The notes under the pieces were generated by a model. The model saw only the letters and a program-made list of their open reading frames with translations, did not search any database and had not been told where the DNA came from. Shown here piece by piece: positions 1 to 13,668 of a DNA stretch of 23,638 bases. Each line of letters starts with the position of its first letter. Position 1 is the stretch's first letter. Location: positions 1-23,638 of the forward strand of contig JACPBX010000002.1 of the NCBI GenBank assembly GCA_016180085.1. Direction: 5' to 3'. Source of the DNA: Candidatus Woesearchaeota archaeon (GTDB lineage Archaea > Nanobdellota > Nanobdellia > Woesearchaeales > UBA10216). The translations under genes and the position numbers were made by a program.

Positions 1-93
1 CTAACCGAATATCAGACTCGCCCATCTTTTTGGTCAAGCTTTTTGCTTGCAAAAAGGTTGTGCGGCGTTCTAGCCAAGCTGAACTATGGGCCC
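1..93 (-). tRNA. tRNA-Ile(GAU), 5' part only, with introns at 30/31 (61..17, 45 nt) and 37/38 (starts at 9, runs off the window)
   Basis: Minus strand reads GGGCCCA-TA-GTTC-AGCTTGGCTA-GAAC-G-CCGC|intron|T-CT-GAT-A|intron. Intron 1 BHB: CGCC pairs with intron GGCG, with 3-nt bulges GCA and AGT. Intron 2: CTGA pairs with TTAG (4..1). The 3' half is outside the window. Confidence 0.8.
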
Positions 94-108
94 AATGATG
101 ATAATAAG

Positions 109-267
109 CGCCCCGGGCCAGACTCGAACTGGCGACCATCCACTCCTATTGAGGATTTGTGGTATCCGCTAGCAAGTAACAGCTTCGTAAGCTTAATGAA
201 TAAGCCATTAAAGCGTCACACGCTCTACCTGTTGCTCCGCTGTTGGCAGCGTCTAAGCTACCGGGGC
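109..267 (-). tRNA. tRNA-Asn(GUU) with four BHB introns: 252..232 (15/16), 216..184 (30/31), 176..164 (37/38), 156..138 (44/45)
   Basis: 159 nt minus 86 nt of introns gives the 73-nt cloverleaf GCCCCGGTAGCTTAGCAGGTAGAGCGTGTGGCTGTTAACCACAAGGTCGCCAGTTCGAGTCTGGCCCGGGGCG. All stems pair, and each intron has a 4-bp central helix with two 3-nt bulges. Confidence 0.9.
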
Positions 268-300
268 ATGACCTTTTTAGAAAAAAGGTCAATCAAAAAG
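268..300. repeat. Palindromic repeat element (core copy) abutting the tRNA-Asn 5' end
   Basis: ATGACCTTTTT-AGA-AAAAAGGTCAATCAAAAAG; 30/33 identical to 13577..13609; contains a perfect 10-bp inverted repeat. Confidence 0.85.
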
Positions 301-370
301 CGGAAGAGGGCGGTTTATATACTTTTTGCCACAGTTAAATATTAATATGACCGCAGCAGCCGCCATTCTA

Positions 371-13539: not shown

Positions 13540-13668
13540 GCCCCTATGGTCCAACGGACAAGATGCGGCCCCGCGAATGACCTTTTTGGTAAAAAGGTCA
13601 ATCAAAAACGGCTGCTTTTATTCAGTCGTGGGTAGGCTGAGATCTGGGTTCAATTCCCAGTGGGGGCG
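13540..13668 (+). tRNA. tRNA-Arg(GCG) with a 57-nt 37/38 intron (13577..13633); unusual C33
   Basis: GCCCCTA/TGGGGGC acceptor, A20 in the D-loop (Arg determinant), CGGCC/GGCTG anticodon stem, CTGGG-TTCAATT-CCCAG T-arm, G73. BHB: CCGC pairs with GTGG, with bulges GAA and GTA. Confidence 0.75.

Follow-up and report, generated by a model that had tools for sequence, protein, structure and literature searches.

The window, a 23,638 nt stretch of DNA from a groundwater Woesearchaeota archaeon (G000, a DPANN archaeon with a genome of ~1 Mb), carries on its minus strand a real tRNA-Asn(GUU) gene, very probably functional, 159 nt long and divided into five exons by four BHB introns (Table 1). The introns account for 86 of the 159 nt (54%, the share originally given). 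The exons, of 15, 15, 7, 7 and 29 nt, join to form a 73-mer that ARAGORN recognizes as tRNA-Asn(gtt), with a full cloverleaf in which all stems (acceptor, 7 bp; D, 4 bp; anticodon, 5 bp; T, 5 bp) are intact. Conserved features of this 73-mer include G18 G19, U33, a 5-nt variable loop, a UUCGAGU T loop and G73; because there are 8 nt in the D-loop and 5 in the variable loop, sequence positions coincide with standard tRNA numbering. CCA is not encoded. Coordinates of exons and introns were cross-checked by matching each piece back to the contig by BLAST. With its inserts in place, the gene goes undetected by both ARAGORN and Rfam. Since the five exons lie colinear inside 159 nt, the gene counts neither as split nor as permuted. 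The four-intron reading rests on the gene sequence itself and, independently, on the presence and absence of introns in orthologues.

Table 1. Features of the tRNA-Asn locus and the RNA ligase gene (window positions unless a contig is named)
Feature	Position	Strand	Description
Putative archaeal BRE/TATA box	313..327	-	AAAAAG TATATAAAC; 46-60 nt upstream of the mature 5' end
Dispersed palindromic repeat copy	270..298	+	GACC-T5-AG-A6-GGTCAATCAAAA; between the putative promoter and the tRNA 5' end, antisense
tRNA-Asn(GUU) gene	267..109	-	159 nt, five exons and four introns
Exon 1	253..267	-	tRNA positions 1-15: acceptor 5' strand, U8 A9, D-stem 5' strand GCUU, A14 G15
Intron 1 (21 nt, site 15/16)	232..252	-	HBh' type
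Exon 2	217..231	-	Positions 16-30: remaining D-loop with G18 G19, D-stem 3' strand, G26, 27-30
Intron 2 (33 nt, site 30/31)	184..216	-	
Exon 3	177..183	-	Positions 31-37: G31, C32 U33, anticodon G34 U35 U36, A37
Intron 3 (13 nt, canonical 37/38 site)	164..176	-	
Exon 4	157..163	-	Positions 38-44: A38, anticodon-stem 3' strand CCACA, A44
Intron 4 (19 nt, site 44/45)	138..156	-	
Exon 5	109..137	-	Positions 45-73: variable loop, T arm GCCAG-UUCGAGU-CUGGC, acceptor 3' strand, discriminator G73
tRNA-Ile(GAU), 5' part, two introns	1..91	-	17 nt downstream of tRNA-Asn; truncated by the contig end
RtcB (PF01139)	G000:C15:48015-50810	-	1001-aa open frame with a ~470-aa insert

Marck and Grosjean's BHB geometry, restated in 10.64898/2026.10.13.758758, pairs the four exon bases just ahead of the 5' bulge with the four intron bases just ahead of the 3' bulge. 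All four introns form four of four such central pairs between two 3-nt bulges, through exactly the helices that had been proposed (GCTT/GAGC, CGTG/TACG, CTGT/GCGG and CCAC/GTGG, from intron 1 to intron 4). The flanks of these helices vary. Intron 4 (CCAC/GUGG in the RNA) has both flanks of the strict hBHBh' motif, a 4-bp inner helix (UCCU/AGGA) and a 3-bp outer helix that arises in the precursor when the tail of intron 3 pairs with G46 U47 C48. Intron 2 (CGUG/UACG) has an outer helix of 2 bp (G24-C32, A23-U33) and an inner hairpin that starts past a 1x1 mismatch. Intron 1 (GCUU/GAGC) has a 5-bp inner helix (CGCUG/CAGCG) and no outer exon helix, while intron 3 (CUGU/GCGG, with two G-U pairs) has almost no inner helix, and an outer one only once introns 2 and 4 have been removed; in relatives, the intronic strand of its central helix reads GCAG, which pairs better than GCGG. 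Introns 1 and 3, at a minimum, thus count as relaxed motifs (HBh' and hBH/loop, respectively).

Because the flanking bases differ, none of the four boundaries can slide, and each boundary is fixed by the mature sequence alone, independently of the BHB motif. At arbitrary boundaries a 4/4 helix arises in 2.3% of cases, in the gene and genome-wide alike, and the joint chance of four such helices at fixed boundaries (shuffled introns, product) is 1.4e-7. BLAST finds no copies of the four introns elsewhere in the genome at E < 0.1, and no C/D-box motifs of the guide RNA kind were seen by eye in intron 2. The idea that the introns are copies of a dispersed repeat was discarded, as the GACC...GGTCAATCAAAA element adjoins the gene and does not lie inside it.

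This element is one of 11 strict copies of the repeat GACC-T(4-6)-loop-A(4-6)-GGTCAATCAAAA in G000 (270-298 on the plus strand of the window, 13579-13607 on the plus strand, and nine more); the copy at tRNA-Asn holds a 23-nt palindrome, and the repeat tail CAAYCAAAAA occurs 36 times, against ~4 expected. A related hairpin occupies the same place in the relatives G005, G008 and, in part, G007, with none in G006 or G009. Another copy abuts tRNA-Arg on contig C10 in the same arrangement. The BRE/TATA-like motif beyond the repeat is kept upstream of tRNA-Asn orthologues and is promoter-like by its sequence. On the other side of the gene, no T-run separates tRNA-Asn from tRNA-Ile, for which reason the two are probably co-transcribed. 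The tRNA-Ile gene is likewise missed by ARAGORN and Rfam; a complete copy in G007 (~L007:1637-1775, 139 nt) gives a 75-nt tRNA-Ile(GAT) upon removal of introns of 45 and 19 nt, and the neighbouring tRNA in G020 is intronless (64.7 bits).

Forty related genomes were searched at the DNA level for the orthologous tRNA-Asn gene, which was found in many of them; orthologues were aligned to an intronless copy, with BHB-compatible excisions alone allowed. In 20 other genomes the gene has between 0 and 5 introns, which fall at the same sites (Table 2). The resulting set of 21 genes, drawn from one family and three neighbouring ones, covers this whole range, and one genus alone spans 1-5. Intron 1 is missing at exactly 15/16 in G001, G010, G015, G019 and G020, and against the intronless genes of G015 and G020 the spliced 73-mer of G000 shows 8/73 and 5/73 differences, respectively. 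From this pattern of presence and absence it follows that the G000 inserts are exactly the indels between natural alleles, and the four inserts of the original prediction, of 21, 33, 13 and 19 nt, stand in both size and site, as the BLAST coordinates also show. The fifth insert, in the T-loop at ~59/60, measures 15 or 32 nt in the congeners G005 and G008; that of G005 is a perfect hBHBh' motif (TTCG/CGAA; its outer helix is the T stem), and the G008 version is relaxed. The orthologue in G003 (L011:1481-1625) has a normal 3' part and intron 1, and no acceptor 5' strand can be recognised beside its D arm; the gene may be split there or contain one more intron close to its 5' end.

Table 2. Introns in tRNA-Asn orthologues
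Introns	Genomes	Sites or score
0	G015, G020	RF00005 72.8 and 70.7 bits
1	G009, G013, G018, G034	15/16
1	G019	20/21
2	G002, G021, G032	15/16, 37/38
2	G007	15/16, 59/60
3	G014	15/16, 37/38, 59/60
3	G006	15/16, 38/39, 59/60
3	G010	30/31, 37/38, 43/44
4	G016	15/16, 30/31, 37/38, 44/45 (the four G000 sites)
4	G001	30/31, 37/38, 44/45, 59/60
5	G005 (L002:1501-1677, 177 nt), G008 (L003:1501-1693, 193 nt)	The four G000 sites and ~59/60

The BHB helices covary among these genes. The inner helix of intron 1 occurs in five distinct versions overall (CGCUG/CAGCG, CGCCG/CGGCG and CAUGC/GCAUG among them), with two to three pair types at 4/5 positions. In the central helix of intron 2, a double change turns U-A into A-U in G001 (CGAG/UUCG), and G-U has become G-C in G016 and G010.

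The introns at 30/31 and in the 44/45 region never occur apart and are always accompanied by that at 37/38, which is also found without both: all six genomes with the 30/31 intron (6/6) hold 37/38 and 44/45 as well (43/44 in G010). A GyrB tree, which does not include G005 and G016, recovers the genus as monophyletic (100/99). Within it, the three-intron block occurs in G000, in the G008/G001 pair and in G005 (off the tree), and is missing from G007, G006, G002, G003 and G009; beyond the genus, G010 and G016 (the latter off the tree) have it too. As judged from these sequences, such a distribution needs several losses, gains or replacements. The gyrB matches in L119, L120 and L121 (G018, G022 and G020) each contain one in-frame TAA.

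The minimum-energy fold predicted for the whole precursor (-65.9 kcal/mol, z = -4.4) contains the acceptor stem, the T arm and the BHBs of introns 1 and 4, which have probabilities of ~0.9 and ~0.8, respectively. In predicted folds these two BHBs survive in nearly every partly spliced state, that of intron 4 falling to 0.35-0.49 if intron 3 leaves first. Equilibrium folding never yields the BHB of intron 2, nor does prefix (co-transcriptional) folding, and an alternative hairpin spanning the 5' splice site of this intron is predicted to be more stable; we accept the motif because of its compensatory changes, not its energy. That of intron 3 is absent from equilibrium and prefix folds in nearly all splicing states, its central helix being predicted only with introns 2 and 4 removed (P 0.5). 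The absence of these two BHBs from the predicted folds is to be read with the unreliability of in-silico tRNA folding in mind. The mature sequence plus intron 3 is predicted to fold as a rod with no cloverleaf.

Competition between the four folds, and hence ordered splicing, had been proposed on the grounds that the central helices use bases of the D and anticodon stems. Mutual competition between central helices does not survive: they lie on separate exon segments (10-13, 25-28, 32-35 and 39-42) and exclude one another nowhere, their competitors being the mature D and anticodon stems. The proposal does hold for intron 3. Having almost no inner helix, this intron depends for its outer helix on the anticodon stem (27-31/39-43), which shares bases with the central helices of introns 2 and 4; furthermore, the outer helix of intron 2 shares C32 and U33 with the central helix of intron 3. 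Given these overlaps with the BHBs of its neighbours, intron 3 would be cut last of the three. Intron 3 is thus probably spliced after introns 2 and 4, and it is for this intron alone that an order can fairly be deduced from the modelled structures. Dependency between close introns, with removal in sequence, has already been described (tRNAscan-SE 2.0, PMC8450103).

In the route that we envisage, the gene would be transcribed as a precursor of at least 159 nt, probably extending into the tRNA-Ile that begins 17 nt downstream. Four bases that lie 3-6 nt ahead of the 3' end of every intron are complementary to the exon bases at the same distance (3-6 nt) ahead of that intron's 5' end. Their pairing would place both cut sites in 3-nt bulges flanking a 4-bp helix, so that a single EndA, probably an alpha4 tetramer, could cut all eight sites; RtcB would join the five exons into the 73-nt tRNA, and CCA would be added after exon joining. 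Introns 1 and 4, predicted to fold alone, could be removed at any time, while intron 3 would form its motif only with introns 2 and 4 gone.

Both a splicing endonuclease and an RNA ligase are encoded in G000. The endonuclease type, whose identification the original prediction had proposed as a check, can be judged from a single EndA gene (G000:C40, 197 aa) that contains one copy each of PF02778 and PF01974. Among solved structures, its best matches by sequence are the alpha subunit of N. equitans, followed by the alpha4 enzyme of M. jannaschii. Across 81 aligned Woesearchaeota/Nanoarchaeota EndAs the catalytic Tyr, His and Lys never vary (Lys in 81/81), and the residue adjoining the catalytic Lys is always basic (K in 78, R in 3). 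Tyr and His are spaced by 10 residues in 81/81 of these proteins, as in M. jannaschii; N. equitans has a spacing of 16 and ARMAN-2 one of 15, and in these two the stretch is the specific loop (PMC3488258). Over residues 46-197, alignment with M. jannaschii requires only two one-residue gaps, and thus no insertion fit for a CSL- or ASL-type loop is seen. No EndA paralogue was found in the 82.8%-complete assembly of G000 by tblastn or by a lineage-specific profile with all filters off, and in 37/40 relatives just one EndA-family gene per genome was found. Weak PF01974 matches in relatives (E 0.03-0.4, ~280-aa ORFs), considered as a second EndA subunit, proved to be a transketolase N-terminal subunit.

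By its sequence, the G000 EndA is alpha4-like and probably forms a homotetramer: it displays the marks of alpha4 genes (a single gene of ~180 aa with both domains, the triad, and no second or duplicated unit), and none of the known specific loops that mark broad-specificity EndAs. Position 60, in a loop aligned to the ARMAN-2 ASL region, is basic (K or R) in 75/81 EndAs, which makes it a lead, and only that, in the search for a specificity determinant. As for RtcB, profile positions 1-58 and 49-426 are matched ~1.4 kb apart in the same frame, which suggests that the insert between them is intein-like.

An alpha4-like enzyme sits uneasily with the motifs it would have to cut. Relaxed motifs are reported to be cleaved poorly by alpha4 enzymes, efficient cleavage being credited to EndAs with a specific loop (PMC5829648), and cleavage of HBh' and hBH motifs is linked to (alpha-beta)2 or epsilon2 enzymes that carry such a loop (PMC5829648, PMC3488258). 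There is thus a tension between the relaxed motifs of introns 1 and 3 and an EndA whose sequence contains no known loop. The alpha4 EndA may be broader in specificity than its architecture implies, there may be a cofactor that went undetected, or bulge closure in the precursor may take forms invisible to secondary-structure prediction.

The second of these ways out would mean that the gene is real and the enzyme not a plain alpha4, with a very divergent structural subunit or an RNA-binding cofactor providing broad specificity for introns 1 and 3. We consider this unlikely: the literature on relaxed motifs and the match of EndA to one subunit of the N. equitans heterotetramer speak for a partner, but relatives almost invariably have a single EndA-family gene, their weak second matches belong to transketolase, neither tblastn nor the unfiltered lineage profile reveals a paralogue in G000, and PMC5829648 itself assigns several DPANN EndAs to the alpha4 class. 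Tentative, and less likely than not, is the twofold proposition that a plain alpha4 EndA (with no CSL/ASL, N. equitans-type loop or beta subunit) services tRNAs with four to five introns, relaxed motifs included, and that the introns at 30/31, 37/38 and 44/45 form an interdependent block removed in obligate order. Sites of such motifs would be the D-loop, the anticodon stem, the variable loop and the T-loop. If the proposition is true, broad EndA specificity would have arisen in Woesearchaeota through a structural solution so far undescribed, with the conserved basic residue 60 and the Lys-rich N-terminal tail as candidate determinants, and the association of specific loops with disrupted tRNA genes, as published, would not be general. 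Heavily interrupted genes alongside a loop-less, single-gene EndA put to the test the model that ties enzyme architecture to intron load.

Could the locus instead be a decaying, non-functional copy, with a working tRNA-Asn gene hidden in the unassembled 17% of the genome? The assembly (998,598 bp, 45 contigs) is 82.8% complete, standard tools fail to recognise the gene, and for introns 2 and 3 folds other than the BHB are predicted to be more stable. Decay is nevertheless very improbable, since the exons hold steady as the introns diverge: between G000 and G005 the exons differ at 0/73 positions and the shared introns at 14/89 (p = 1.5e-4), and between G000 and G016 the respective figures are 4/73 and 42/100 (p = 2e-8). 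Exon 1 is identical in G000 and the orthologues of G005, G008, G006, G007 and G009. Moreover, all stems of the spliced tRNA are intact, the BHB helices show compensatory changes, the promoter motif is conserved, the same architecture recurs in five other species, and no second Asn locus turned up in the relatives searched. An intronless tRNA-Asn elsewhere in the genome, which the original prediction had named as a threat to its reading, was sought with ARAGORN, Rfam and a DNA search, and none was found in the 82.8%-complete assembly.

Two further readings have next to no probability. A parse with three introns, for example with one 32-nt insert made up of introns 3 and 4 plus exon 4 and with a G-U-rich anticodon stem, ties on cloverleaf score only if G-U counts as a full pair; but a reference-free search of all BHB-compatible excisions places the four-intron model on top when Watson-Crick pairs outweigh G-U and BHB quality is scored, and the exon-4 bases stand at exactly the predicted place in intronless and one-intron orthologues. 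A chimeric join of tRNA fragments, conceivable in a metagenome-assembled genome for a gene ~100 nt from a contig end, is effectively ruled out by the same exon-intron order at 9-27% divergence in the separate genomes G005, G008, G001 and G016, and by synteny with gyrB and tRNA-Ile common to the relatives.

With the four-intron gene as the preferred reading, the question becomes how it compares with known systems. Multi-intron tRNA genes of the Thermoproteales were reportedly described by Sugahara et al. in 2007/2008. The likeness to these genes is considerable: several BHB introns per gene at canonical and non-canonical sites, sequential removal, and processing by EndA and a ligase. They differ in their reviewed maximum of three introns, as opposed to four in G000 and five in congeners, in their crenarchaeal host, as opposed to a ~1 Mb DPANN genome, and in their enzyme, the G000 EndA being a single alpha-type gene with neither the crenarchaeal loop nor a beta subunit.

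Three introns per tRNA gene was the published maximum in 2014 (PMC4033280), and the tRNAscan-SE 2.0 paper speaks of "two or three" (PMC8450103). The suggestion that four introns might be new fails as a count, however, since Supplementary Data 4 of PMC11291895 (2024) contains four-intron tRNAs from the Asgard Freyarchaeia (e.g. Arg-TCT and Ile2-CAT), and up to five intervening sequences in one Asgard tRNA gene are reported in a 2026 preprint (10.64898/2026.10.13.758758). Our literature search turned up no report of tRNA genes with four or five introns in Woesearchaeota or other DPANN archaea. The four-intron tRNA-Asn is a well-supported case of a known phenomenon, neither a record nor a new kind of gene. 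In Asgard archaea, Freyarchaeia included, as here, genes carry four to five introns with a patchy distribution among relatives, and D-arm introns are missed by standard annotators; in contrast, theirs is a different superphylum and an independent lineage, the G000 introns are very short (13-33 nt), and Asgard EndAs carry an L1 loop (PMC5829648), which the G000 EndA lacks. ARMAN-2 (epsilon2 EndA, PMC3239211) and N. equitans (split tRNAs) resemble G000 in being DPANN archaea with unusual tRNA genes and BHB processing. Unlike theirs, the G000 exons are colinear at one locus, neither split nor permuted, and its EndA is neither a three-unit epsilon2 enzyme as in ARMAN-2 nor a heterotetramer as in N. 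equitans, with a Tyr-to-His spacing of 10 as against 15 and 16. Together, the tRNA-Asn genes with 0-5 introns form a compact natural series for the gain, loss and kept spliceability of BHB introns.

Predicted tRNA sets of DPANN archaea have been noted to be incomplete, and hidden disrupted genes were suspected (PMC5829648). Hidden multi-intron genes explain concretely why these sets look incomplete, and such gaps are open to misreading as gene loss or host dependence. ARAGORN reports 23 tRNA genes in G000, and Rfam 22; the former assigns no gene to Asn, Asp, Cys, Gln, Ile, Lys, Met, Trp or Tyr (9/20 amino acids), two of which are accounted for by the tRNA-Asn and tRNA-Ile genes described here. 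A scan for T arms and acceptor stems yields 19 plausible tRNA candidates, 14 of them longer than 100 nt, and most of the detectable genes measure 100-180 nt. Applied to 18 candidates with intact T arms, a strict-BHB solver reproduces the Asn and Ile models, with many others poor or ambiguous. A 23-nt look-alike of the anticodon arm at G000:C22:89137-89159 lies in coding-like sequence, has a different triplet and was rejected as a chance match. At 13540-13668 on the plus strand of the window, a 129-nt tRNA-like gene has a good acceptor stem and T arm, and a sub-threshold Rfam score of 18.5 bits; ARAGORN calls it inconsistently as Ser-gct or Pro-ggg with an intron, and the solver offers no convincing model. 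A third copy of the palindromic repeat lies within it, and it is probably another interrupted tRNA that carries a repeat element.
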